Position numbers and translations under genes: made by a program. Of a stretch of 64,000 nt of DNA, positions 2,701 through 54,391 are shown one piece after another (the first letter of the stretch is position 1; each line of letters starts with the position of its first letter). The notes under the pieces were generated by a model. That model saw only the letters and a list, made by a program, of their open reading frames with translations, was not told the origin of the DNA and did not search any database. The DNA comes from Candidatus Nomurabacteria bacterium RIFCSPHIGHO2_02_40_30 (GTDB lineage: Bacteria > Patescibacteriota > Minisyncoccia > Phycocordibacterales > UBA9973): positions 159,859-223,858 of the forward strand of contig MFTV01000016.1 in NCBI GenBank assembly GCA_001785445.1. Reading direction: 5' to 3'.

Positions 2701-4740
2701 TTGGTGGAAGACCACCTAAAGGAACTTAACAAAGAACAGAGGGAAGCGGCACTTCACATGAAAGGGCCGATTTTGATAGTGGCTGGCGCTGGAGCAGGGA
2801 AGACAAAAACTATCACGCACAGAATAGTGAATTTAATAAAAAACGGAGTTGCCCCTGAACGTATTTTGGCTGTAACTTTCACCAACAAAGCCGCCAAGGA
2901 AATGCGAGAACGCGTTATTGCCGAAATTGAAAAAAATGCCCAAATGACTCAAGAGCAAGACAATATTCCGTTTGTCAGCACTTTTCATTCGCTTGGAGTT
3001 TACATAATAAAAGAAAATGCGCGAATATTGGGGCTGACAAAATATTTTACAATTTTGGACGAGTCCGACTCTACTTCGCTCGTCAAAGAAGCGTTGAAAG
3101 AGATAGACATAGACCCCAAAATGTACGACCCCAAGAAAATAAAAAATATAATTAGCCGAGAAAAAGGAAAATTTATACACCTAGCCGACTATACAGAAAC
3201 AAACAGCAACAATACTTTGGGTAAAATAGTGGCGCAGGTTTGGAATTTATATGAAAAGAAAAAAGAAAAAGAAAATTCCTTGGATTTTGATGACTTGCTT
3301 TTAAAGGCGACAAAATTATTGAAAGATAACGCTGAAATTAGAAAAATATATCAGGAGAAATGGGAATATATACACATTGACGAGTATCAAGACACCAACG
3401 AAGTGCAATATTTGATGTCAAAATTGCTTTCGGAGAACAATAAAAACATCTGCGTGGTGGGAGATGCCGACCAAAACATATATTCGTGGCGGGGAGCAAA
3501 TTTGAAAAACATTTTAAGCTTTGAAAAAGATTATCCTGATGCGAAAATAGTTCTTTTAGAACAAAATTACCGTTCCACTCAAAATATTCTGGAAGCAGCC
3601 AATGTCGTCATCAAGAAAAATAAATACCGACCGGATAAAAATTTGTTTACCAAAAATAAAACCGGAGAAAAAATTTCTTTATACGAAGCACTCGATGAAA
3701 ACGACGAAGCAGACTTCGTCGCTACAAAAATTTTAGAAGTACTAGACAACGGAGTGGGCACTATTTTTGATAGGTCGCTGTCTGTGCGTGCTCGCACAGC
3801 GCTGCCTCTCGGCTCGTCAGCCTGCGAGACACCCCTCAAAAACACGCCCACTCCGTTGTCTGAAATAGCCATATTATATAGAGCCAATTTTCAGTCTAGG
3901 GCGCTGGAAGAAGCAATGCTCCGGTACAATATTTCATACCAAGTTTTAGGTGTGAAATTTTTTGAAAGAAAAGAAATTAAAGATACCTTGGCCTATCTGC
4001 GCGCTGCATTAAACAGAGACAGCCTTTCGGACGTAAAAAGAATCATAAATTTCCCTACACGGGGCATTGGCAAGGTCACCTTGGCTAAAATTTTTGCAAA
4101 TGACGTAGAAAGTCTGCCCATAAAAGTAAAAATCAAGGTTAATAACTTTTATAAAATTTTGGAAGACATAGGAGAAAAAATAAAAACTAGCAAAACCTCG
4201 GAAGTTATAAAGTTTGTGGTAAAAAAGTCCGGCATAGAAAGTGAATTATCAAATGGTACTGAAGAAGACATAGAAAGACTTGAAAATATAAAAGAACTAG
4301 CTACACTGGCGCTGAAGTATGATAATTTAGAAAATGGGGGAGGCGTAGAAAAGCTCTTGGAAGATGCGTCACTTGCAAGCGATCAAGACTCAATAATGAT
4401 TGAAGAGAAAAAAGAAACAAAAAACGCAGTTAAGCTTATGACGGTACACGCATCAAAGGGACTTGAATTTAAATATGTTTTTATCACTGGCCTTGAAGAC
4501 GGACTTTTCCCGCATCAGAAGCACAATGTGGAGGCAAGTGAAGATAGCGAAGAAGAACGTAGACTTTTCTATGTAGCGCTTACTCGCGCCAAAGAGAAGT
4601 TATTTCTATCATTTACAAATTTTCGCACCATCTTCGGTTCACGACAGATAAATGCGCCGTCGGAATTCGTTTCGGACATATCGGCAGGTTTATTAGAAAA
4701 AGAAGGGGAAAAAAATAAAATAAAAACTATCTATATATAA
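2701..4740 (+). CDS. pcrA: ATP-dependent DNA helicase, UvrD/PcrA/Rep family (TTG start)
   Basis: Walker A GAGAGKTKTITHRI; motifs AVTFTNKAAKEMRER, DEYQDTN, VVGDADQNIYSWRGA, ILYRANFQSRALEEA; C-terminal HASKGLEFKYVFITG and YVALTRAKEKL. Confidence 0.9.
   Translation: MVEDHLKELNKEQREAALHMKGPILIVAGAGAGKTKTITHRIVNLIKNGVAPERILAVTFTNKAAKEMRERVIAEIEKNAQMTQEQDNIPFVSTFHSLGVYIIKENARILGLTKYFTILDESDSTSLVKEALKEIDIDPKMYDPKKIKNIISREKGKFIHLADYTETNSNNTLGKIVAQVWNLYEKKKEKENSLDFDDLLLKATKLLKDNAEIRKIYQEKWEYIHIDEYQDTNEVQYLMSKLLSENNKNICVVGDADQNIYSWRGANLKNILSFEKDYPDAKIVLLEQNYRSTQNILEAANVVIKKNKYRPDKNLFTKNKTGEKISLYEALDENDEADFVATKILEVLDNGVGTIFDRSLSVRARTALPLGSSACETPLKNTPTPLSEIAILYRANFQSRALEEAMLRYNISYQVLGVKFFERKEIKDTLAYLRAALNRDSLSDVKRIINFPTRGIGKVTLAKIFANDVESLPIKVKIKVNNFYKILEDIGEKIKTSKTSEVIKFVVKKSGIESELSNGTEEDIERLENIKELATLALKYDNLENGGGVEKLLEDASLASDQDSIMIEEKKETKNAVKLMTVHASKGLEFKYVFITGLEDGLFPHQKHNVEASEDSEEERRLFYVALTRAKEKLFLSFTNFRTIFGSRQINAPSEFVSDISAGLLEKEGEKNKIKTIYI
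3745..3860. repeat. GC-rich palindromic element inserted in-frame in pcrA, bounded by perfect 15-bp inverted repeats
   Basis: gacaacggagtgggc (3745-3759) and gcccactccgttgtc (3846-3860) are exact reverse complements; an inner hairpin ctgtgcgtgctcgcacag (3782-3799) is present; the enclosed ~60% GC segment encodes TIFDRSLSVRARTALPLGSSACETPLKNTPTP, which sits between the conserved DNGVG and (A)ILYR(A/S)N helicase motifs and has no counterpart in UvrD/PcrA homologs. Confidence 0.55.
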
Positions 4741-4748
4741 GAAAATTT

Positions 4749-5597
4749 ATGAAAGCAAAAAAATCATTGGGACAGAATTTTTTGAAATCAGAGCCGGCTC
4801 TGCGAAAAATTGTTGAAGCAGGAGAAATAAAACCAGAGGACATAATTTTGGAAATAGGACCGGGGAAGGGTGCACTGACTAAAAAACTTTTGGAGAAGTG
4901 CAGGCATGTCATAGCTGTAGAAAAAGATTATGAACTTGTTTCTTTACTAAAAGAAAAATTCGCCGAACAGATAAAATCCAGCTCTCTTGTACTAGTGCAT
5001 GAGGACATACTGCAATTTAATATTGACGAAGCAGTTTTAACTTTTTCGAATGGTCTGGCCGGGAGAGGGACCCGGGAAACCGAGGACCTGAGAAAAAGTT
5101 CAAAACTGCGAAGTTATAAAATTATCGCCAACATTCCTTATAATATAACTGGAGCGATTTTGAAAAAATTTTTAACAGCAAAGAATCAGCCTACCACCAT
5201 GGTCTTAATGGTACAGCATGAAGTAGCTAAAAGAATAATGGCGTATGACGGCAAAGAGAGTCTCCTTTCACTTTCTGTCAAAATGTATGGTGAACCAAAA
5301 ATGGTCACGAAAGTTCCGGCGCGATATTTTTCTCCAAGCCCAAAGGTGGACTCGGCAGTAATTGCTATAAAAAATATTTCTAGAAAAATGTTTGAAGAAA
5401 ACAAAATTAATGAAGAAAATTTCTGGAAAATAGTGCATGCGGGTTTTGCCCACAAAAGAAAAAAGCTCTCTGGTAACTTAAAAAAGTTACAAATTTCGCA
5501 AGAACCGTTCTTGCGAAATTTAGGCAACAAAAGGGCGGAGGATTTGTCCCCAAAAGACTGGGTTGCTTTGGTGAAAAGTGCTATAATTAGGCCATAA
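4749..5597 (+). CDS. rsmA: 16S rRNA (adenine1518/1519-N6)-dimethyltransferase
   Basis: N-terminal KKSLGQNFL; SAM-binding EIGPGKGALT; ANIPYNIT motif; length typical of KsgA. Confidence 0.9.
   Translation: MKAKKSLGQNFLKSEPALRKIVEAGEIKPEDIILEIGPGKGALTKKLLEKCRHVIAVEKDYELVSLLKEKFAEQIKSSSLVLVHEDILQFNIDEAVLTFSNGLAGRGTRETEDLRKSSKLRSYKIIANIPYNITGAILKKFLTAKNQPTTMVLMVQHEVAKRIMAYDGKESLLSLSVKMYGEPKMVTKVPARYFSPSPKVDSAVIAIKNISRKMFEENKINEENFWKIVHAGFAHKRKKLSGNLKKLQISQEPFLRNLGNKRAEDLSPKDWVALVKSAIIRP
5042..5097. repeat. GC-rich palindromic mini-element inserted in-frame in ksgA; same family as the copy at 49921-49976
   Basis: tttttcgaatggtctggccgggagagggacccgggaaaccgaggacctgagaaaaa has conserved arms (gaatggtctggc ... 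ggaaaccgaggacctga) matching the reverse complement of the intergenic copy; it encodes ~19 extra residues (NGLAGRGTRETEDLRKS) immediately before the conserved NIPYNIT motif, where homologs have none. Confidence 0.55.
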
Positions 5598-6551: not shown

Positions 6552-9503
6552 ATGAAAAAAAAGACAAGTCAAAAATTAATCTCCTTTCTCATAATTATCG
6601 CAATACTGATTCCAGCTGTTTTATTTTCTAGGCCGAAACAGGCAGAAGCGCAGACTGCTCTCGGTGGCCCTAGCTGGCTAGTTGATATATTTACAGGCGG
6701 AACACTTGGTGCCTCCGGAGTAAGCGCTGGGCAAGAAACTATTCAGACAGGTTTTAAAATCAAAGAGTTCGCCAAAGACATTCTAAAACAAATTATAATG
6801 ACAGTGCAAAAAAGGCTTTTGGCGGAGATGACCAAGAGCACCATAAACTGGATCAATACTGGTTTCCATGGATCACCACTTTTCGTAGAAAATCCGAAAT
6901 CTTTTTTCACGGACATTGTAAAGTCGGAGGTAAAAACCATTGTGGACCAAATAGGCTACGATGTACTCCACCAGCCTTTCGGTAAACAAATGGCTTTGAA
7001 TATTATCAATAGCTACAAAAGCACCCTACAAAGCAATTCCGAATACACATTGAGTAGAGTTATAAATGACCCCAGACTGCTTCAGAACTATAGAACCGAT
7101 TTTAATGTTGGCGGGTGGAACGGTTTTTTTATCAATAACCTATACCCGCAGAATAATTATCTGGGGTACAACATGATAATCAGGGAAAGCCTTGGCAGAA
7201 AAGTAGACAACCCGATAAATAATGAAATAAAAAAAGTACAGGACACTTTACAAAAAGGGATGGGGTTCTTGTCGCCAGAGACTTGTCCGGGCAACAGCGC
7301 CAATTCTCAAGCATACAATAAAGTTATTGGCAATGCCTGGCAACGACCTAGCTTTAAAACTCCAGCTATGTCAGACAGTGAAAAAAATGCACTCAATGCC
7401 TGTTATAACAACAGTATTGGAGCCGAATCTGAGGCAGAAGCATGTGTCCAACGTGTACACGACCAATACAATACCAGAGTTGGCGCGGCTAAAGCCACTT
7501 GGGCGAACACCAATACTTGCAAGGCTGGTTTGGTTACTACCACTCCCGGCTCGGTGGTGGCAAGCCAAATCACCAATGCCATGGGCTCTAATTTCAGGCA
7601 AACGGAACTTGGCGCCGCTCTTGGCAATAGCATGTCGGCAATTTTTGATGCATTGCTAACTAAATTCTTAGGAGACGGCTTGAATGCGTTGGCCAGCAAA
7701 GTAAATCCAGAACCGGAGCCAGATACTTGGGATTATGATGGTCATACTCTTGGTGGTCCGGGAGATAATAACAGAGATCCATTTAGTGGTCCAGATGAAG
7801 TTGTGGACTTAGGTGACTTCAAAGAAACTGTAGACAGAGGAATAGAGAACACAAATATGGAGCTTGAACTTATCTTCAACGACATTACTGCTCTCATAGA
7901 TCCAGGTACAGGTAAGATTTTAAATAACCCTGGAATTATGCAAATACTTGGTTTGATTTGGCCAGCCACACGAGAACTCGATATATGTTTACCAGGTCCA
8001 GATTTGGGATGGCAGGCGCGAACACTCAAAGAGCTCGAAAGAAATAGTGGAAAACTTAACCAAAAATCTACTGATGATGATCCTAAAGAAGCAGCCACAG
8101 CCAGACTAGTTCTTCGAGAACTGCAATTTGCTGTAGATTTCTTTGAAGACTGGATAAATAACAAAATGATGATAGAACTTCCTAATGCCATATTGTATAT
8201 GGACGCAGTGGATGCGCTAGAAACCTTATATCAACAATCAGATGAGCTGGTTGCCCAAAAAAGAGCAAAGGCTTCGGCTCTAGCAAGATTGCAGGCTATT
8301 AAGTCTGGCCTAGACGATTTTACGACACAGCCAGAACCCAACTCGGGTGGGGAAAAAGTTTTGATCAATTTGAAAAAGCAGTACAATGCCATAAGTGCTA
8401 CTGTTTCCAATACTGCCAGCTTGGATGATACGCGAAACGATTTATCTATTGCTAAAGAGAAATTTGAAAAGTTGAAACAATTGACAAAACAGTGCACCGC
8501 AGAAAGAACAAAAAAGGGTTGGGCTAACCCAGGCGGGCAGAGTTCGCTCAATAACTCCGGCACAGAAAGACAACTATTTTGTGATTATCCAGTTAGTGGC
8601 GGGTACACTCATGAGTCATTTATAGGTCCTGACTCAACAAGACCTAAATTGCCAATGGTAAATGGAAAAAAAGTATTTAAATTTGACAAGGCTTTTGGTA
8701 GCGGCACCACTGACATAGCCATGGACTGCAATTTTATATACAAAGCGAATGTCTTGGATTATAAAGGCACTATTCCCGGCTTGACCACTGCCGTAGATTC
8801 ATCTCCAGCGTCACCCTTAGGCACATGTTCGTATTTAAACTACGAAGACGAACCAAGGGTTGATGAGAGTGTGACAGAAAGTGCCTGCCTAGACAGGGGC
8901 GGGACGTGGGGAGGAGTAGGGAGCTCAACTACCACAACCACAACTACCCCCCCCGGTACTCCACCACCTCCACCCCCAACAATTATCGGAAGCTGTGGAA
9001 CATCAAACGGGCAAATTTTCTCTTCCGGTTCTCTTACGACGAATCTATGTAGCACCGGCACTCCTTCTTCTTTATTTGGCTCTGGACCTTGGACTTGGAA
9101 TTGTAACGGCAGTGGTGTTGGCGGTTACGGCGCTACTTGTTCTGCCAACTTAGCGCAAGTAGTTACTCCACCACCTCCACCTACAGCCGGACAAGTAGCT
9201 TTGTCGGCTTCTTCTAGCATTGGTCCATCTTTCTCTATGGGGTCTGTAACACTTACCGCGACCAATCCTGACTCCGGACAATTTTATTATTACTTCTTTT
9301 GCAATCGCTCGCAGACTGACTCTCCTCCGCCAGTGCCAAATGGTTTTATAAATTCTCCCCTGTTGATCAGCGAGAGCACATATGTCTCTCCGGTAAAATG
9401 TAGTTACCCTACCGCAGGGACTTACCGTCCGAAAGTGATTAGTTTGAAACTTGGCAATCCGTTAATATGGCGGCAGGGCTGGGCAACGATAACTGTGCAA
9501 TAA
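6552..9503 (+). CDS. Large secreted protein (983 aa) at the head of the T4SS-like cluster; C-terminal Thr/Pro linker and a YYYFFCN/PKD-like domain
   Basis: Signal peptide (ISFLIIIAILIPAVLFSRPKQAEA); poly-Thr/Pro linker TTTTTTTPPGTPPPPPPT; C-terminal FYYYFFCN...C.YPTAGTYRPKV motif shared with the 2296-aa protein. Confidence 0.6.
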   Translation: MKKKTSQKLISFLIIIAILIPAVLFSRPKQAEAQTALGGPSWLVDIFTGGTLGASGVSAGQETIQTGFKIKEFAKDILKQIIMTVQKRLLAEMTKSTINWINTGFHGSPLFVENPKSFFTDIVKSEVKTIVDQIGYDVLHQPFGKQMALNIINSYKSTLQSNSEYTLSRVINDPRLLQNYRTDFNVGGWNGFFINNLYPQNNYLGYNMIIRESLGRKVDNPINNEIKKVQDTLQKGMGFLSPETCPGNSANSQAYNKVIGNAWQRPSFKTPAMSDSEKNALNACYNNSIGAESEAEACVQRVHDQYNTRVGAAKATWANTNTCKAGLVTTTPGSVVASQITNAMGSNFRQTELGAALGNSMSAIFDALLTKFLGDGLNALASKVNPEPEPDTWDYDGHTLGGPGDNNRDPFSGPDEVVDLGDFKETVDRGIENTNMELELIFNDITALIDPGTGKILNNPGIMQILGLIWPATRELDICLPGPDLGWQARTLKELERNSGKLNQKSTDDDPKEAATARLVLRELQFAVDFFEDWINNKMMIELPNAILYMDAVDALETLYQQSDELVAQKRAKASALARLQAIKSGLDDFTTQPEPNSGGEKVLINLKKQYNAISATVSNTASLDDTRNDLSIAKEKFEKLKQLTKQCTAERTKKGWANPGGQSSLNNSGTERQLFCDYPVSGGYTHESFIGPDSTRPKLPMVNGKKVFKFDKAFGSGTTDIAMDCNFIYKANVLDYKGTIPGLTTAVDSSPASPLGTCSYLNYEDEPRVDESVTESACLDRGGTWGGVGSSTTTTTTTPPGTPPPPPPTIIGSCGTSNGQIFSSGSLTTNLCSTGTPSSLFGSGPWTWNCNGSGVGGYGATCSANLAQVVTPPPPPTAGQVALSASSSIGPSFSMGSVTLTATNPDSGQFYYYFFCNRSQTDSPPPVPNGFINSPLLISESTYVSPVKCSYPTAGTYRPKVISLKLGNPLIWRQGWATITVQ

Positions 9504-43052: not shown

Positions 43053-44270
43053 ATGTTTTTCTCATACAAGGCAAAATCAAAGGCAGGGGATATAACAGAG
43101 GGAGTTTTGGAGGCGGCAGGTCGTCTGGCACTCGCGCGCGACCTGCGCGCGCGCGGTCTGATACCTTTGTCTGTTACCGAAGAAAACGTAAATTTTCTCA
43201 GCAAACTGTCGGCGCTCACAAATGTTTTTTCTAGAATCAGCGTTAACGAACAGATTGTTTTCACAAAAAATTTAAGTGGGATGCTGAAAGCTGGGCTTTC
43301 ACTTTTTCGGGCTTTATCAGTTTTAAAAAAACAGACAAAAAACGCTAAGATGGACAAGGTTCTGACTTCTCTATCCAATGACATAAATTCTGGAGAAACA
43401 TTATCTTCCGGACTTTTAAAATTCCCTGACATTTTTTCAAAACTTTTTGTATCCATGACCAAGGCTGGCGAGGAGTCCGGTAATTTAGATGGGGCGCTTT
43501 CCGATATCGGAATTAATTTGGAAAAATCGCATTCATTAACCAGAAAGATCAGAGGGGCGCTAATTTATCCCGGAGTGATTCTCTCCGCCATGGTGGTTAT
43601 CGGTGTTTTAATGTTTGCTTTCGTGGTGCCGACTCTCGCCAGCACCTTTAAAGAACTCGGTGTTGTTTTGCCCACTTCCACTCGTGTCCTTATTTTTCTA
43701 GGTAACTTTTTCTCCAACCACTTGATTCTAACCTTCATAATGATAATTGGCACAGCCTTGCTTTTGTATTTTCTTTTTATTTCTAAGTTTATGGCGAAAT
43801 ACATTGATTACACCGTTATTAGAATTCCAATTATCGGGAATTTAGCAAGGTCACTAAATACCGCCCGCACCGCCCGCACCATGTATTCTTTGCTGCTGGC
43901 GGGGGTTTCCATCACTCGGGCAGTAGAAATTACGCAAGACGTAGTGCAAAATATTTACTACAAGCAAGTTTTAAGTGAAGCTAAATTGGCAGTCGAAAAA
44001 GGAGCCCCATTTTCTCAAGCTTTTGAAAATAGTCAAAATCTTTATCCGGTAATGATGTCGGAGATGATCCAAGTCGGAGAAGAAACTGGAAAATTATCAG
44101 ATATGTTATTGCAAGTCGCTTTGTTTTATGAAGAGGAAATTGAAAATAAAACAAAGAACCTTTCGACGATCATCGAGCCAGTGCTCATGGTTGTCATTGG
44201 CGCTGGGGTCGGATTTTTCGCCATTTCCATGGTCTCGCCGCTATATTCAATTTTAGGCAGTATAAATTAA
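43053..44270 (+). CDS. pilC: Type IV pilus inner-membrane platform protein (GspF/PilC family)
   Basis: Two T2SS-F domains, 3-4 TM segments, 405 aa; synteny with pilB and the pilin genes. Confidence 0.9.
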   Translation: MFFSYKAKSKAGDITEGVLEAAGRLALARDLRARGLIPLSVTEENVNFLSKLSALTNVFSRISVNEQIVFTKNLSGMLKAGLSLFRALSVLKKQTKNAKMDKVLTSLSNDINSGETLSSGLLKFPDIFSKLFVSMTKAGEESGNLDGALSDIGINLEKSHSLTRKIRGALIYPGVILSAMVVIGVLMFAFVVPTLASTFKELGVVLPTSTRVLIFLGNFFSNHLILTFIMIIGTALLLYFLFISKFMAKYIDYTVIRIPIIGNLARSLNTARTARTMYSLLLAGVSITRAVEITQDVVQNIYYKQVLSEAKLAVEKGAPFSQAFENSQNLYPVMMSEMIQVGEETGKLSDMLLQVALFYEEEIENKTKNLSTIIEPVLMVVIGAGVGFFAISMVSPLYSILGSIN

Positions 44271-48307: not shown

Positions 48308-49512
48308 GGCTAAAAAGTTTAGAGAGTGTAAACTTGCAAGGCAAAACTATTCTTTATCGCGTGCCCTACGATATTGAGCTCGTGGAAATAAATGGCTCTC
48401 TAGGGCTCGCAGATGACATGCGCATAAAGGCAACGCTCTCAACTTTGCAGTATCTTTTAAAAGAAAATTGTAAGATTGTCATTTTGACTTATGTGGGGCG
48501 TCCTGATGGGAAAGTAGTGGAGAAACTTCGCACCACGCCTCATGCCAAAAGACTAAGCGAGCTTTTGGGTTGCAAGGTTGGTAAAGTGGATGACTGCATT
48601 GGAGAAGAGGTAGAAAGGAGAATTATAGCAATGCAGGCTGGAGATATTTTGATGCTGGAGAACGTAAGATTTTATAAAGAAGAGACTGATGATGATGATG
48701 AATTCGCCAAAAAACTCTGCATAGGCAAGGATTATATAGTGTTTGACGGTTTTCCTCAGGCGCACAGAATTCATGCATCTACCACTGGCATAGAACGGCA
48801 TTTACCGGCTGTTGCAGGTCTCTATCTTGAAAGTGAAGTTAAAATGCTGTCTAAATTACTGGAGAGTCCGGAACGCCCCTTCACTGTAATTATCGGTGGG
48901 GCAAAAATTTCTGATAAAGTGGATGCAGTAAATAATTTATTAAAAATAGCCGATAAAGTTTTAGTCGGCGGAGCTGTCGCCAATGTTTTCCTTAAAGCAC
49001 AAGGTCACGAACTTGGGTCTTCTTTCGTTGAGGATGTTTTTGTCGATGAAAAAAAGCGTGAGAAAAAAGACTGGGTCGTATATGCCAAAGAAATATTGGA
49101 AACATATAAAGATAAAATTATTTGTCCGACTGATTTGGTAATATCTGATGGTGTATCAACCAAGGTTATCAATATCACTTTTGATAAAGTGCCGGAGAAT
49201 TGGGCGGCGCTTGATATTGGTCCTGAAACACAAAAAATGTTTTCAGATATTATAGAAAAATCCAAAACAGTTTTTCTGGCCGGTCCCATGGGCAAGTTTG
49301 AAGACAAAAATTTTACACAAGGGTCAGAAGCAATACTTACTGCTATGAAAAAGGTAAATGGAGAGACCATTATTGCCGGTGGAGATACCATTGCCATGAC
49401 GCGCCAGTACGGAAATCTGGAAGATTATTCGCACGTGAGCCTTGCCGCTGGCGCAACTTTGGAATTTTTAGCCGGTAAAACTCTCCCGGCTCTCATGCCA
49501 CTTATGCGATAG
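48304..49512 (+). CDS. pgk: Phosphoglycerate kinase
   Basis: LQGKTILYRVPYD; VIIGGAKISDKV; AGGDT; 4-nt overlap with tpiA. Confidence 0.9.
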   Translation: MRLKSLESVNLQGKTILYRVPYDIELVEINGSLGLADDMRIKATLSTLQYLLKENCKIVILTYVGRPDGKVVEKLRTTPHAKRLSELLGCKVGKVDDCIGEEVERRIIAMQAGDILMLENVRFYKEETDDDDEFAKKLCIGKDYIVFDGFPQAHRIHASTTGIERHLPAVAGLYLESEVKMLSKLLESPERPFTVIIGGAKISDKVDAVNNLLKIADKVLVGGAVANVFLKAQGHELGSSFVEDVFVDEKKREKKDWVVYAKEILETYKDKIICPTDLVISDGVSTKVINITFDKVPENWAALDIGPETQKMFSDIIEKSKTVFLAGPMGKFEDKNFTQGSEAILTAMKKVNGETIIAGGDTIAMTRQYGNLEDYSHVSLAAGATLEFLAGKTLPALMPLMR

Positions 49513-49909
49513 CAGAAATAATTTTTTTTATTACCTCGTCTACTTCTCCTTTTTCATATTTTTTGGTGGCAAATTTAGGCAGACCGTCGCTGAAATATCT
49601 TGGAATCAAATGTATATGGAAATGCGGTACGTCTGTCCCTCCCACGGAGACTTGCACATAGTCGCATGATAATCCATTTTTTATGGAGAGCATTAATTTT
49701 TTAACTAATTTAAAAATCTCCGACACGGTTTCATCATCGGCTTCCTGCATCCAGACGAAATGCTTTTTAGGTATGACGAGGATATGGCCGCTGGAGACCG
49801 GCTCTATATCTAAAAAGGCGAAGAAACTATCATTTTCATAAATCTTGTCGCAAGGAATTTCTTTGTTTATAATTTTGCAAAAAATACAATCATTCATAGA
49901 AAGTTTCAC
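49502..49909 (-). CDS. HIT-family nucleotide hydrolase (probable GTG start, or the internal Met)
   Basis: Histidine-triad motif VPHFHIHLIP; 135 aa. Confidence 0.8.
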   Translation of the reverse strand: MKLSMNDCIFCKIINKEIPCDKIYENDSFFAFLDIEPVSSGHILVIPKKHFVWMQEADDETVSEIFKLVKKLMLSIKNGLSCDYVQVSVGGTDVPHFHIHLIPRYFSDGLPKFATKKYEKGEVDEVIKKIISAIA

Positions 49910-49920
49910 AAAATCAAAGT

Positions 49921-49976
49921 TTTTTCAGGTCCTCGGTTTCCTGGGGCCCCGCGCCCCAGCCAGACCATTCAAAAAC
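49921..49976. repeat. Intergenic copy of the GC-rich palindromic mini-element also found inside ksgA
   Basis: The reverse complement gtttttgaatggtctggctggggcgcggggccccaggaaaccgaggacctgaaaaa matches the ksgA copy in both arms, while the central stem differs but keeps self-complementarity (cggg...cccg vs tggggc...gcccca). Confidence 0.55.
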
Positions 49977-50020
49977 TTTATTTTGCAAAACTTTCTATAT
50001 TATATGCTAAAATTCCACTT

Positions 50021-51700
50021 ATGCAAAAGTATGGTGAATTACTGCGGACTCTTTTAGCAAAGAGAGGCATTACGGACGAGGCGCAAGCGGAGATTTTTCT
50101 GGAACCCGATTATCAAAGAGATTTGCATGACCCATTTTTAATGCGTGACATGGAGAAGGCTTGCGTTCGGCTCTTTGAAGCCATAGATAACAATGAAAAG
50201 ATAGTTATTTACGCTGATTATGATTGTGACGGCATTCCGGGAGCAGTAATATTACAAGATTTGTTTAGAGAAATAAAATATACGAACTACGAGGTCTATA
50301 TTCCACAGAGGAATTCCGAAGGCTACGGGCTCAACTTAGATGCTGTTAAAGATTTTGCAAATTCTAATGTGAAGTTAATAATAACCATTGATTTGGGGAT
50401 TACTGCTGTGGCTGAAGTAGCCCAAGCAGAAGTAGACGGCATAGATATAATAATTACCGACCATCACTTGCCTCGCCAAAGCGAGAGCAACGGCGGGCTT
50501 GCTTTCAATTTGCCACGCGCCTATGCTATTTTGAACCCAAAGGTAGATAATTACCCTGAAAAAATGCTCTGTGGCGCCGGAGTGATGTTTAAATTTGTGC
50601 AAGGATTTTTAAAAAAATATGGCGAATACTTCAAGGTAAAAGAAGGTGTAGAAAAATGGATGCTCGACATGGCTGGCGTTGCTACACTTTCCGACATGGT
50701 GCCACTTGTCGGTGAGAACAGGGCACTAGCTTATTTCGGCATGAAAGTTTTAAGAAAATCTCCGCGTCCTGGCTTGCAGAAACTTTTAGCAAAACTAAAC
50801 ATCGAGCAGAAATATCTTTCAGAAGATGACTTAGGCTTTATGGTAACTCCGAGGCTGAACGCCGCTTCACGCATGGATGACCCGATGCGAGCTTTTGAGT
50901 TACTTTCTACTGATGATGAAGTACAGGCTGAAGCGTTAGTGAAACATTTATCAAGAATAAATGATGAGAGAAAAAGTATTGTCACAGGAATCATGCGGGA
51001 TGTAAATAAGAATTTTGATAAGCGCCAAATGAATGAGGTAATAGTTATCGGCAATCCCGCTTGGCGTGTGGGGGTTCTGGGGCTAGTGGCAGGTAAAATT
51101 TGTGACGAATATCAAAAGCCTGTATTTGTGTGGGGCAAAGACGAGAATGAATGCATCAAGGGTTCTTGCCGTAGTGATGGCTCGGTGTCGGTAGTGGAGT
51201 TAATGACAGCTTCAAGCGAATCTTTCATTGATTTCGGTGGGCATGAGCTCGCAGGGGGGTTCACGGTTGAAAATGAAAAAATTCATTTCTTAGAAGAAGC
51301 TTTGTCTCTATCTTTTACAAAAGTGCAAAGACCTAAAAAAGAAAATGTAACAAGTTACGACATCAAATCTGACTTAAGCATAGTAAATATGAAAAATTGG
51401 CGAGAGATAGAAAAGCTTGTACCCTTCGGGCTCGCTAATCCAAAGCCTGTTTTTCTTTTTGAAGGTGTTAAGATAGAAAATATAAAAAAATTCGGCAAAA
51501 ATGGTTCGGGTGAGCATTTGGAAATTATTTTCTCTGATGTAAAAAAGAGTAAAGCTAAAGCTATCTCTTTTTTTTCTAATATAGACTCTTTTAAAAATAC
51601 TTTATCAGAAGGATTAAAGCTAAATTTACTGGCCACTTTTGACTTATCTCGCTTCAGGGGGAGAGAAGAGCTAAGACTTCGAATTATTGATATACTTTAG
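50021..51700 (+). CDS. recJ: Single-stranded-DNA-specific exonuclease RecJ
   Basis: DHH motifs (IYADYDCDGI, ITDHHLP), DHHA1 region; 559 aa. Confidence 0.85.
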   Translation: MQKYGELLRTLLAKRGITDEAQAEIFLEPDYQRDLHDPFLMRDMEKACVRLFEAIDNNEKIVIYADYDCDGIPGAVILQDLFREIKYTNYEVYIPQRNSEGYGLNLDAVKDFANSNVKLIITIDLGITAVAEVAQAEVDGIDIIITDHHLPRQSESNGGLAFNLPRAYAILNPKVDNYPEKMLCGAGVMFKFVQGFLKKYGEYFKVKEGVEKWMLDMAGVATLSDMVPLVGENRALAYFGMKVLRKSPRPGLQKLLAKLNIEQKYLSEDDLGFMVTPRLNAASRMDDPMRAFELLSTDDEVQAEALVKHLSRINDERKSIVTGIMRDVNKNFDKRQMNEVIVIGNPAWRVGVLGLVAGKICDEYQKPVFVWGKDENECIKGSCRSDGSVSVVELMTASSESFIDFGGHELAGGFTVENEKIHFLEEALSLSFTKVQRPKKENVTSYDIKSDLSIVNMKNWREIEKLVPFGLANPKPVFLFEGVKIENIKKFGKNGSGEHLEIIFSDVKKSKAKAISFFSNIDSFKNTLSEGLKLNLLATFDLSRFRGREELRLRIIDIL

Positions 51701-52179: not shown

Positions 52180-53628
52180 ATGCGGGACAGGATTTTCTAC
52201 TCAATATGTTTTGGTTTTGTGCTTGGAGTACTGTGGGGTTCTTTTGTTTCTACAGATTTGTATTTGGTTTTCTTATTTGCTGAGATTGCTTTTGCGCTAT
52301 TTTTATTCTTTTCTTTAATTTCCCAAAATAGCTGGGGGATTATCGCAAGTATTTTTATTTTGACTTTTGTTTTTGGCTTATGGAGATTCAGCATAGCAGA
52401 CAGAGTTGCGCCAATTGTGGTTTCTATGCATGGCGAGATAGTGGATGAACCGACCATGGGAGAAAATAATCAAAAGTTGATAGTGCAAACCAAAGAAACT
52501 ATAATTTTAATTACTACTGATTTTGAAAATAATTATAAATACGGGGATATAATCAATTTTTCCGGTAAACTGGAAAAACCAGAAAACTTTATTACCGACC
52601 AAGGCAAAGAATTTGATTATATAAATTATTTAAGAAAAGATGGTATTTTTTATGTAATAAGTTTCCCCAAAGTAGAGATTATCTCACGAGGGAATGGTAA
52701 TTTTATTCAAGCTTTTTTATTTTCTGTTAAAGAGAAGTTTCTAGAAAAAATGAATCTGGCAATACAGACTCCAGAGAGTCTCTTGATGGGGGGTCTTATT
52801 TTGGGAGAAAAAGCTTCTTTTAGTGCCCCAATGAGGAAAAGTTTTGTTGATACCGGAACGATACATATAATAGCGCTCTCTGGCTATAATGTGACGATAG
52901 TGGCCGAATGGCTTATGAAGTTGTTTGCCCAAATACCCTATGCGTCCAAAAATCTTGGTATTGGTATAGGGATTTTCACAATCTTACTTTTCGTATTAAT
53001 GACAGGTGGCAGCTCCACAGCCATCCGGGCGGGGATTATGGCAGTTTTAGCATTAATTGCCCGTGCGACCGGCAGAAATTATGATGTCGCGCGGGCTCTC
53101 ATTCTGGCGGGGGTATTTATGATTTTACTCAATCCATTTGTGCTGGTGTATGACGTGTCTTTTCAGCTTTCTTTCATCGCTACAGTGGCGGTGATATTTT
53201 TTACACCAAAGATAGAAAAGTATTTTTTATGGGTGACGAAAAGTTTTGGTCTGCGAGACATTATTTCTGTTACCTGCGCCACATATATTTTCATCATGCC
53301 TTTTATTCTTTACAAAATGGGCAATCTTTCCATAGTAGCTCTGCCCGCTAATATTTTAATTCTTCCCCTTATTCCATTTACTATGTTCCTCGGTTTTCTC
53401 ACAAGTTTTGTAGGGCTTATTTCTTATGTACCTTCTGTGCCATTAGGCTATATTTCGTACTTATTTCTACACTACGAGCTTGGCGTTATAAATTTTTTCG
53501 CAAATATTCCTTTTGCCTCTCTTTCATTTCCTAATTTTCCATTTTTACTAACACTAGCTATCTACGCATATTTTATTTACGTGCTTTTCGGCAAAAGTGT
53601 TAAAAAAACTTTTGAAACAAATTTTTAA
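52180..53628 (+). CDS. comEC: DNA internalisation competence protein ComEC/Rec2, membrane channel portion (DUF4131 plus competence domain) without the C-terminal MBL domain
   Basis: Multiple TM helices; competence-domain motif LLMGGLILGEKASFSAPMRKSFVDTGTIHIIALSGYNVTIVAEWL. Confidence 0.75.
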   Translation: MRDRIFYSICFGFVLGVLWGSFVSTDLYLVFLFAEIAFALFLFFSLISQNSWGIIASIFILTFVFGLWRFSIADRVAPIVVSMHGEIVDEPTMGENNQKLIVQTKETIILITTDFENNYKYGDIINFSGKLEKPENFITDQGKEFDYINYLRKDGIFYVISFPKVEIISRGNGNFIQAFLFSVKEKFLEKMNLAIQTPESLLMGGLILGEKASFSAPMRKSFVDTGTIHIIALSGYNVTIVAEWLMKLFAQIPYASKNLGIGIGIFTILLFVLMTGGSSTAIRAGIMAVLALIARATGRNYDVARALILAGVFMILLNPFVLVYDVSFQLSFIATVAVIFFTPKIEKYFLWVTKSFGLRDIISVTCATYIFIMPFILYKMGNLSIVALPANILILPLIPFTMFLGFLTSFVGLISYVPSVPLGYISYLFLHYELGVINFFANIPFASLSFPNFPFLLTLAIYAYFIYVLFGKSVKKTFETNF

Positions 53629-53708
53629 GGGGTTTTGAGCTCGACGGAGCGAAAACTTCAAGATTTTTTAAGCTTCAAAAAATCTGTACCGACAAAAATT
53701 TCGGTTTC
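53629..53708. terminator. Conserved multi-hairpin intergenic module, copy 2, between convergent comEC and sodA
   Basis: ggggttttgagctcgacggagcgaaaacttcaagattttttaagcttcaaaaaatctgtaccgacaaaaatttcggt; same architecture as copy 1, with compensatory changes in hairpin 1 (gctc/gagc vs ggct/agcc). Confidence 0.55.
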
Positions 53709-53719
53709 TAAAGTTTTTT

Positions 53720-54391
53720 TTATAAAGCCTCTTTGAAGTTTTTTTCTATTACTTCCCAGTTTAAGTTTACGAAAAAGTCTTCCACGTAATCTTTTTTCCC
53801 ACCCGGGCTATAGTCTGCGATGTAGGCATGTTCCCACATATCCAAGGCGAGTACCACAGCGCATCCGGAGAGCTGTCCGAGCTCATGATCTCCGACATAA
53901 GCATTCAAGAGGCATTTGTCTTTTTTGTCATAATACAGCATCGCCCAGCCGATGCCTCGGCTCATGGCTATGGCCTTGAAACGAGCGAGCCAAGCTTCAA
54001 AGGAGCCCGAAGTAGATTCTATTGCCTTATGTAATTCTCCATCTTTTGAAATTATTTTTGCTCCGTTTGAAAGGGCGTCGAAGTATATTTCGTGGTTACG
54101 CATGCCATCATACTCGAAACCAAACCTTCTTTGTATTTCCCCCAGCTCGTAGGCATATTTCTCCGAGTCTTTTGCGAGCTCCTCTATTTTTTGTAAAATT
54201 AAATTTGTATTTTTTACATAGCCGGCATAGAGCTTCAAGTGGTCTTCAATGGTTTTGGCAGATATTCCTTTAAGTGCCGGGATGTTAAACTTTTTTTCTT
54301 CAAACTTCTTGAGCATGTTAATATTGTACCATGTTTCAAAGTCGCAAGAAGTATGCTCTGTTGATTTTCGCCCTGTTACTTTTGGTGGCAA
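53720..54391 (-). CDS. sodA: Fe/Mn superoxide dismutase
   Basis: N-terminal helical domain and C-terminal DMWEHAYIADY...NWEVIEKNF motif characteristic of Fe/Mn-SOD. Confidence 0.85.
   Translation of the reverse strand: MPPKVTGRKSTEHTSCDFETWYNINMLKKFEEKKFNIPALKGISAKTIEDHLKLYAGYVKNTNLILQKIEELAKDSEKYAYELGEIQRRFGFEYDGMRNHEIYFDALSNGAKIISKDGELHKAIESTSGSFEAWLARFKAIAMSRGIGWAMLYYDKKDKCLLNAYVGDHELGQLSGCAVVLALDMWEHAYIADYSPGGKKDYVEDFFVNLNWEVIEKNFKEAL

Follow-up and report, generated by a model that had tools for sequence, protein, structure and literature searches.

Our analyses support a family of short, non-autonomous selfish DNA elements in CPR bacteria of the Paceibacteria/Nomurabacteria type, a reading to which we give a probability of roughly 0.8 and which takes in both GC-rich hairpins found in the window (the whole 64-kb stretch of DNA analysed here). 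Members of the family are dispersed over intergenic spacers and at least 15 host genes, and their presence, absence and orientation vary between close relatives, even at one and the same site. In the mechanism that we propose, whole hairpins would be copied and inserted more or less anywhere, and in compact genomes the only insertions to survive would be those in short spacers or in permissive protein loops, which would explain why the KsgA loop, two UvrD loops and the HIT-recJ spacer have been hit repeatedly; copies would subsequently decay via hairpin-mediated deletion. The conserved core, better folded on one strand than on the other, may serve as the handle for a putative trans-acting enzyme, the substrate of which would most likely be single-stranded DNA, and this last is the weakest step of the scheme. 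Against the selfish reading as a whole, the very strong conservation of the core would also fit a host function.

If the selfish reading is right, even CPR genomes of about 1 Mb with few recognisable transposons harbour active selfish DNA, largely inside essential genes, and many of the lineage-specific insertions of 20-40 residues and length differences in CPR proteins, which disturb annotation, alignment and structure prediction, would be explained. The fast turnover at fixed sites would provide strain-level markers, and the insertions would amount to a natural record of which loops in conserved enzymes are permissive. A full-text literature search combining CPR/Patescibacteria with palindromic elements or MITEs returned no description of such elements in the searchable literature.

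Copies in the window and beyond it

The two window copies (Table 1) were compared by aligning positions 5020-5120 (+) with the reverse complement of 49900-50000. An earlier note on this DNA had described them as a pair of GC-rich palindromes with common arms, and the alignment bears this out: GAATGGTCTGGC is exact in both copies (5048-5059, +; 49959-49970, -), as is GGAAACCGAGGACCTGA (5075-5091, +; 49925-49941, -), while the central stems, as had also been claimed, are unlike in sequence and each self-complementary (CCGGG-AGAGGGA-CCCGG versus CTGGGG-CGCGGGG-CCCCAG). The length of 56 nt proposed for the element had to be revised, these 56 nt being the tip of a longer AT-rich hairpin with a real extent of about 80-100 nt. 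In copy 1 the outer arms, GCAGTTTTAACTTTTTC and GAAAAAGTTCAAAACTGC, form an AT-rich stem of 17 bp. The predicted folding energies amount to -34.1 kcal/mol for copy 1 and -40.8 kcal/mol for copy 2 on the + strand of the window, and to -52.3 kcal/mol for the wider stretch 49883-50011 on the element strand. Allowing up to three mismatches, the shared 17-mer has two matches in the window against a chance expectation of 0.09, and two or more matches were reached in none of 100 shuffles; the 12-mer taken alone has no significance in the window. A covariance model of the family scores copy 1 at 85.8 bits and copy 2 at 82.7 bits and, run over the 64-kb window with filters off, identified no copies besides these two. 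A further GC-rich stretch considered as a candidate, 43107-43167, is ordinary coding sequence without AT-rich arms.

Table 1. Hairpin elements and adjoining genes (positions in the window)
Feature	Positions	Strand	Description	Further details
copy 1	5030-5109	+	80-nt hairpin, in frame inside ksgA	encodes about AVLTFSNGLAGRGTRETEDLRKSSKLR
copy 1 core	5048-5091	+	GAATGGTCTGGC, apical CCGGG/AGAGGGA/CCCGG, then GGAAACCGAGGACCTGA	
copy 2	49896-49998	-	103-nt hairpin in the HIT-recJ spacer	inverted repeat with 28-nt arms
copy 2 core	49925-49970	-	arms of copy 1; apical stem-loop CTGGGG/CGCGGGG/CCCCAG	
ksgA/rsmA	4749-5597	+	16S rRNA adenine dimethyltransferase, host of copy 1	Pfam RrnaAD, E = 5e-57
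HIT-family gene	49502-49894	-	Pfam HIT, E = 2e-21	ATG at 49892-49894 adjoins the hairpin base of copy 2
recJ	50021-51700	+	Pfam DHH, DHHA1 and RecJ_OB	starts 22 nt past the copy 2 hairpin

The reading frame of ksgA is open throughout the interval given in Table 1, and the encoded protein has identical counterparts among the entries for Candidatus Nomurabacteria MAGs. The near-identical database protein P0002 (KKR84483.1) lacks 36 residues (SLLSLSVKMYGEPKMVTKVPARYFSPSPKVDSAVIAI) elsewhere in the protein, either as a deletion allele or through a difference in assembly or gene calling. Neighbouring genes confirmed by Pfam comprise a UvrD-type helicase, KsgA/RrnaAD, PGK, HIT and RecJ. HIT and recJ are divergent genes separated by a 126-nt spacer, most of which is taken up by copy 2, whose + orientation runs in the direction of HIT. 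Just upstream of copy 2 ends a sigma-70-like site on the - strand (TTTGCA-17-TATAAT, 10/12; 49999-50027), although such sites near copy 2 are not enriched over shuffles; were this one used, the HIT mRNA would have its 5' end at the hairpin base and its AUG against the 3' arm.

Beyond the window, a scan of one genome per species with the pattern GGTCTGGC-N10-30-GGAAACCGAGGACC identified 21 loci. Eleven of these lie in CPR genomes (Nomurabacteria, Paceibacterota and MAGs labelled Saccharibacteria), all with long AT-rich, self-complementary flanks; the remaining 10, in high-GC genomes (Streptomyces, Actinoplanes and others), were discarded as chance matches in coding sequence. A relaxed pattern found at least about 95 AT-rich-flanked copies in metagenome contigs. 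The window copies, the genome scan and the metagenome matches listed make up the set of 107 copies analysed below, all of them AT-rich-flanked. Far from being confined to the two window sites, the family is thus represented in related genomes by over 100 additional copies at many unrelated sites, with two or three copies within a few kb on single contigs in some cases (L043, L057, L071, L075 and L128). Most copies were ascertained by a pattern that fixes 19 core bases, so that the conservation of the core in this set arises partly by construction. A covariance model built from 99 copies recovered only three extra, more diverged copies in 650 kb of fetched, already selected CPR contigs; with two copies in the 64 kb of the window and these three extra ones in 650 kb, the family is widespread yet has few copies.

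No known RNA family accounts for these sequences. Against Rfam 15 there was no match in the window at the gathering score, and matches around both copies with E up to 10 were at chance level only. The idea of a single-copy small RNA gene, suggested by one exact match per genome, was rejected in view of the intragenic copies, the occurrence of both orientations and the many loci. ARAGORN identified no tRNA in the window. On a viral contig (L022, IMGVR_UViG_3300035700_000486) the pattern has a match at 8711-8787, in the 3' half of a phage tRNA-Pro(CGG), GGTCCTCGGTTCAAATCCGAGTAGCCAGACCA, the reverse complement of the core resembling the variable loop and 5' side of the T-stem together with the acceptor 3' end with CCA. 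This likeness is confined to the 19 searched bases and is probably a coincidence, and a tRNA-derived origin of the element was rejected.

Anatomy, covariation and strand asymmetry

Each copy consists of one long hairpin with a median length of 93-95 nt. The outer stem, AT-rich and with a median of 28 nt on each side, frequently has a 1-base bulge in the 3' arm; it varies among copies, which group in subfamilies, and encloses an internal loop YGAAU/CUGAR that is replaced by Watson-Crick pairs in some of them. Further in, the conserved helix GGUCUGG / CCGAGGACC is GC-rich and irregular, containing a 2-nt bulge and a U.G pair; it is followed by a purine-rich strand of 4-5 nt (GGAAA, AGAGA or GGGGA) and by an apical stem-loop that varies through compensatory changes. 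The compensatory central stem noted between the two window copies holds well beyond them, with pair 25-41 being CG in 49, UA in 42 and GC in 5 of 99 copies. Over these 99 copies, 91% of cells are paired as against 76% in shuffles, double changes occur at 15 pairs, and the covariation score (0.352 versus 0.104) was reached by none of 500 shuffles; in controls with slid partners pairing was at most 63% and the signal was gone. Four KsgA genes retrieved through their protein, and hence free of the search pattern, contained three elements of the same family (hereafter family A), with both GGTCTGG (GGTCTGGC) and CCGAGGACC intact in all three, and peptides encoded by the core are present in about 60 KsgA proteins. 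Compared with the consensus sequences of SRP RNA domain IV, the hammerhead (CUGANGA/GAAA) and the K-turn, the core fits none.

The arms are self-complementary within a copy, while their outer 10-20 nt are unlike between copies, even on one contig. They recur as types rather than at random (e.g. ...CTAGAAAATTTTAGMAT and ...GAAAATAATTTTTTYGAAT), and are therefore part of the mobile unit. No terminal inverted repeats common to the copies were found, the outermost ends being unconserved, and direct repeats flanking the copies, looked for as target-site duplications, were close to the shuffled control.

Some individual copies depart from this architecture. Contig L096 carries three elements inside 900 nt, one of which (8049-8106, -) places the outer stem and internal loop of the family (ACTTTTTTGAAT...CTGAGAAAAAGT) around a different GC-rich core, and another (7966-8022, +) keeps the core arms and lacks the apical hairpin, a decayed form. 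In the L042 copy (element-oriented 1142-1180, plus about 20 nt beyond; 4730-4768 of the record, - strand) the 3' core arm CGAGGACC is present three times in tandem (GGACCCGAGGACCCGAGGACCCGAAAAAAA).

The two strands of the element are not equivalent. In 90 of 100 copies the + strand (GGTCTGGC...) gives a more stable fold than the complementary one, the mean difference being 4.6 kcal/mol, and among outer-stem mismatches, de-duplicated to 80 clusters, 42 are G.T and 14 A.C (p = 2e-4; sign test 28 versus 5), the G.T excess being concentrated 8-10 nt from the core. Since the orientation relative to the host gene, counted by site, is mixed, this asymmetry does not track the mRNA. It is a hint, rather than proof, of a strand-specific single-stranded intermediate, and would also fit a feature inherited from master copies; the G.T excess, in particular, could come from such master copies instead of from selection. 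The strongly conserved, strand-specific core nonetheless points to a putative recognition partner. On a bolder view, a trans-acting enzyme or host factor could recognise the core as a strand-specific hairpin, and the elements together could constitute a new system of single-strand hairpin insertion (homing), or a nucleic-acid signal used by the host, that repeatedly places interchangeable cassettes at a few essential-gene sites; we regard this extension as rather unlikely.

Host sites, turnover and competing explanations

Among the matches listed, 57 of the 107 copies (53%) fall within an open frame of 150 codons or more, with 19 in sense, 37 in antisense and one in both or ambiguous orientation. 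Hosts confirmed by Pfam are KsgA, UvrD/PcrA (at two sites), a class I aminoacyl-tRNA synthetase, TsaD, PheT, UvrC, UvrB, SMC and CCA/polyA polymerase, to which LigA, PolA, MnmA, cysteine desulfurase, UvrA, IleRS and LeuRS were added by eye only. The core has a stop codon in just one of its six frames, and the near lack of stop codons in any frame would make intragenic copies tolerable. Several frames are used and, as the frame is open in every intragenic copy, read-through translation is indicated: judged from the reading frames, intragenic copies would be translated as about 25 extra residues, and peptides spanning FSNGLAGRGTRETEDLRK are what such read-through would yield. Intergenic copies usually occupy the whole of a short spacer between distinct genes.

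A role as functional structured RNA, either cis-regulatory or as a small RNA with a core bound by a host factor (e.g. a HIT leader, a signal for mRNA stability or processing, or a terminator), would account for the strong covariation, for a core kept across diverged hosts and for the better fold of one strand with its excess of G.U-type mismatches. In the window, copy 2 has a promoter-like site on one side and the start codon of HIT on the other, and both copies would be transcribed in their + orientation. We consider such a role improbable, given that the majority of copies listed are in open frames, that both orientations relative to transcription occur at the same site, that the genes near copies have no function in common, and that Rfam contains no match. 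Furthermore, close relatives lack the element or hold unrelated hairpin families at the same place, and the element is therefore dispensable. An intrinsic (bidirectional) terminator was specifically rejected, flanking runs being rare at intergenic copies (T runs at 18% and A runs at 13%); no terminator-like site was found at copy 2, which lies between divergent genes.

The turnover behind this dispensability is best seen in the KsgA loop. Of the two strands that enclose the insert, one ends in HEDIL and the other, YKIIAN, runs on into NIPYNIT; the distance from DIL to YKI is 34 residues in the window protein, as compared with 8-9 in P0042 and P0064, the empty homologs nearest to it, and 7-17 across all 24 empty homologs. 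The earlier note was right that the insertion keeps the frame; its estimate of about 19 residues was too low, the insert having about 25-26 relative to empty homologs and ending five residues before NIPYNIT. The insert region is missing from the empty-site KsgA genes L144-L146, and KsgA of B. subtilis has a shorter segment at this position. In an AlphaFold model of moderate quality (mean pLDDT 69.5), residues 94-112 and 118-124, between strands 80-84 and 124-126, have a pLDDT below 50, the strands on either side being placed; this would put the insert in a permissive loop, predicted to be disordered, between two core strands.

Orthologs of KsgA hold palindromic elements, and not merely non-palindromic sequence, at this same position. 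Among 110 homologs, the loop contains family A in sense in 35 and in antisense in 27, other hairpin families in 24, and no element in 24; the nearest neighbour has the same loop state for 32 of the 110, and in 92 of 119 pairs with at least 80% identity the loop state differs. The other families include C (ERTLGRSDGDGQRKFSAENFRGESEN, ERTLGRSDGDGQRKFSAENFRGESENVLRN), D (FSDSPQKFSTENFLCPSS.LLPRV) and E, among others, and some KsgA proteins show the trace of a decayed element (GLGIFSEDL). Inserts of the type SLRTAKRNSLLEKI were observed at the loop in P0073 and P0078, and other palindromic loop inserts in homologs including P0025, P0029, P0032, P0036, P0047, P0050 and P0066 (DNA in L150, about 690-800); GC-rich inserts are also present at other positions of KsgA in P0049, P0094 and P0078.

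One ancient insertion per site, followed by flipping via the element's own inverted arms or by homogenisation through gene conversion, would leave a similar mixture of orientations. Indeed, for at least eight host genes the orthologous sites are occupied in both orientations, several copies at the KsgA site have similar inner arms, and on L043 three copies have identical cores, two of them sharing 15 nt of each arm and diverging further out, a pattern compatible with conversion tracts. The sense element of L147 and the antisense element of L148, however, lie in hosts that are about 90% identical and have unrelated arms and junctions about 12 nt apart, and are therefore independent insertions rather than products of inversion; the offset between their junctions further implies an insertion point that is not nucleotide-precise. 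Similarly, L123, the ortholog of the HIT-recJ spacer of the window, carries an element whose arms are different and whose relative orientation is opposite, the KsgA loop is held by unrelated hairpin families, and the two window copies have not been homogenised, all of which make an invertible cassette more doubtful still than a functional RNA. An origin of the arms from the target, including an inverted target duplication, was also rejected, the arms in L148 having no counterpart in the near-identical L147 host and empty KsgA sites having no half-arm. Finally, that the insertions are selected surface peptides added to KsgA and other enzymes is very improbable, despite the conservation of NGLAG.GT..TEDL in many KsgA homologs, and is already contradicted by the reading of the same DNA in at least five frames or orientations into unrelated peptides (GLAG..TEDL, GLAG..NRGP, WSGWG.., GPRF..PDH and QVLG..QTI), by the copies in intergenic DNA, by palindromy at the nucleotide level and by the predicted disorder of the insert.

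Known mobile elements and other hairpins in the window

The earlier note had proposed a structured, mobile mini-palindrome family akin to MITEs or REPs. The structured mobile family is supported; the MITE label is contradicted by the lack of conserved termini and of target-site duplications, and the REP label by the location of more than half of the listed copies inside genes and by the low copy number. By behaviour, the closest analogue is the Rickettsia palindromic elements (RPE; Ogata et al. 2000). As summarised in PMC10969869, RPE are short palindromic repeats of about 100-150 bp in the small AT-rich genome of a host-dependent bacterium, located in spacers and in unrelated housekeeping genes; their intragenic copies are in frame and contribute a peptide where the fold can accommodate it, and there are several families side by side, each with one conserved peptide. 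The CPR element likewise belongs to small AT-rich genomes of host-dependent bacteria and is palindromic, dispersed in spacers and housekeeping genes, frame-keeping and accompanied by several other families; no transposase or classical transposon hallmarks are known for either. It differs in its phylum (CPR/Patescibacteria), its length of about 80-100 nt, its conserved GC-rich tip core with variable arms, the use of its DNA in many frames and a very fast turnover of sites, with families competing for one loop. At this phylogenetic distance, sequence homology to the ten RPE families is improbable. The parallel with Rickettsia suggests that in-frame hairpin insertions are tolerated by reduced, host-dependent genomes, or that such genomes are unable to purge them.

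Bacterial MITEs (Correia/NEMIS, ERIC, BOX/RUP/SPRITE and the Coxiella QMITE) are small, non-coding, hairpin-forming, dispersed and non-autonomous, and are sometimes intragenic with in-frame fusions (PMC10969869, PMC5896051). Unlike these, the CPR element has neither shared terminal inverted repeats nor target-site duplications, and has few, mostly intragenic copies. REP/REPIN sequences are imperfect hairpins recognised on one strand, and RAYT (Y1/HUH) transposases mobilise them; by definition REPs lie outside genes, and they number hundreds of copies and have a conserved GTAG head and a RAYT gene alongside. The strand-specific fold and conserved irregular helix of the CPR element suggest that it, too, may be recognised as single-stranded DNA, whereas its few copies, more than half of them intragenic among the matches listed, lack a GTAG head.

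Two further systems share part of its architecture. GC clusters and byps of yeast mitochondria are mobile GC-rich palindromic mini-elements of a very AT-rich genome, some of them intragenic (var1; byps in Magnusiomyces). Both are organellar, and byps, which the ribosome skips, do not have to be open, whereas every intragenic CPR copy is open in frame. Integron attC sites are imperfect palindromes whose active form is a folded single strand, extrahelical bases marking which strand it is; they have conserved boxes at the base of the stem and a variable centre, and flank gene cassettes next to an integrase. The CPR element, by contrast, is conserved at the tip and varies in its arms, and no cassette or integrase setting was seen around it.

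The window contains hairpin elements of other kinds as well. Upstream of ksgA, within the UvrD/PcrA ORF (2701-4740), an unrelated 118-nt hairpin element lies in frame at 3744-3861 (+). Its outer stem (AGACAACGGAGTGGGC / GCCCACTCCGTTGTCT) is perfect over 16 bp and is followed by TTTTTGA/TCAAAAA and by a GC-rich core of two hairpins; the element folds at -60 kcal/mol (+), and the wider stretch 3725-3885 at -75.5 kcal/mol (-). Its site (EADFVATKILE..|..AILYRANFQSRA) is the one occupied by the ksgA-type family in L103, L107, L128 and L135. A third long-hairpin repeat has two intergenic copies, at 25868-25980 and 53602-53720, neither in an open frame and 84% identical over 80 nt, in which an outer stem of about 20 bp encloses a core of two small hairpins, one of them being GGATTTTTTAAGCTTCAAAAAATCC.
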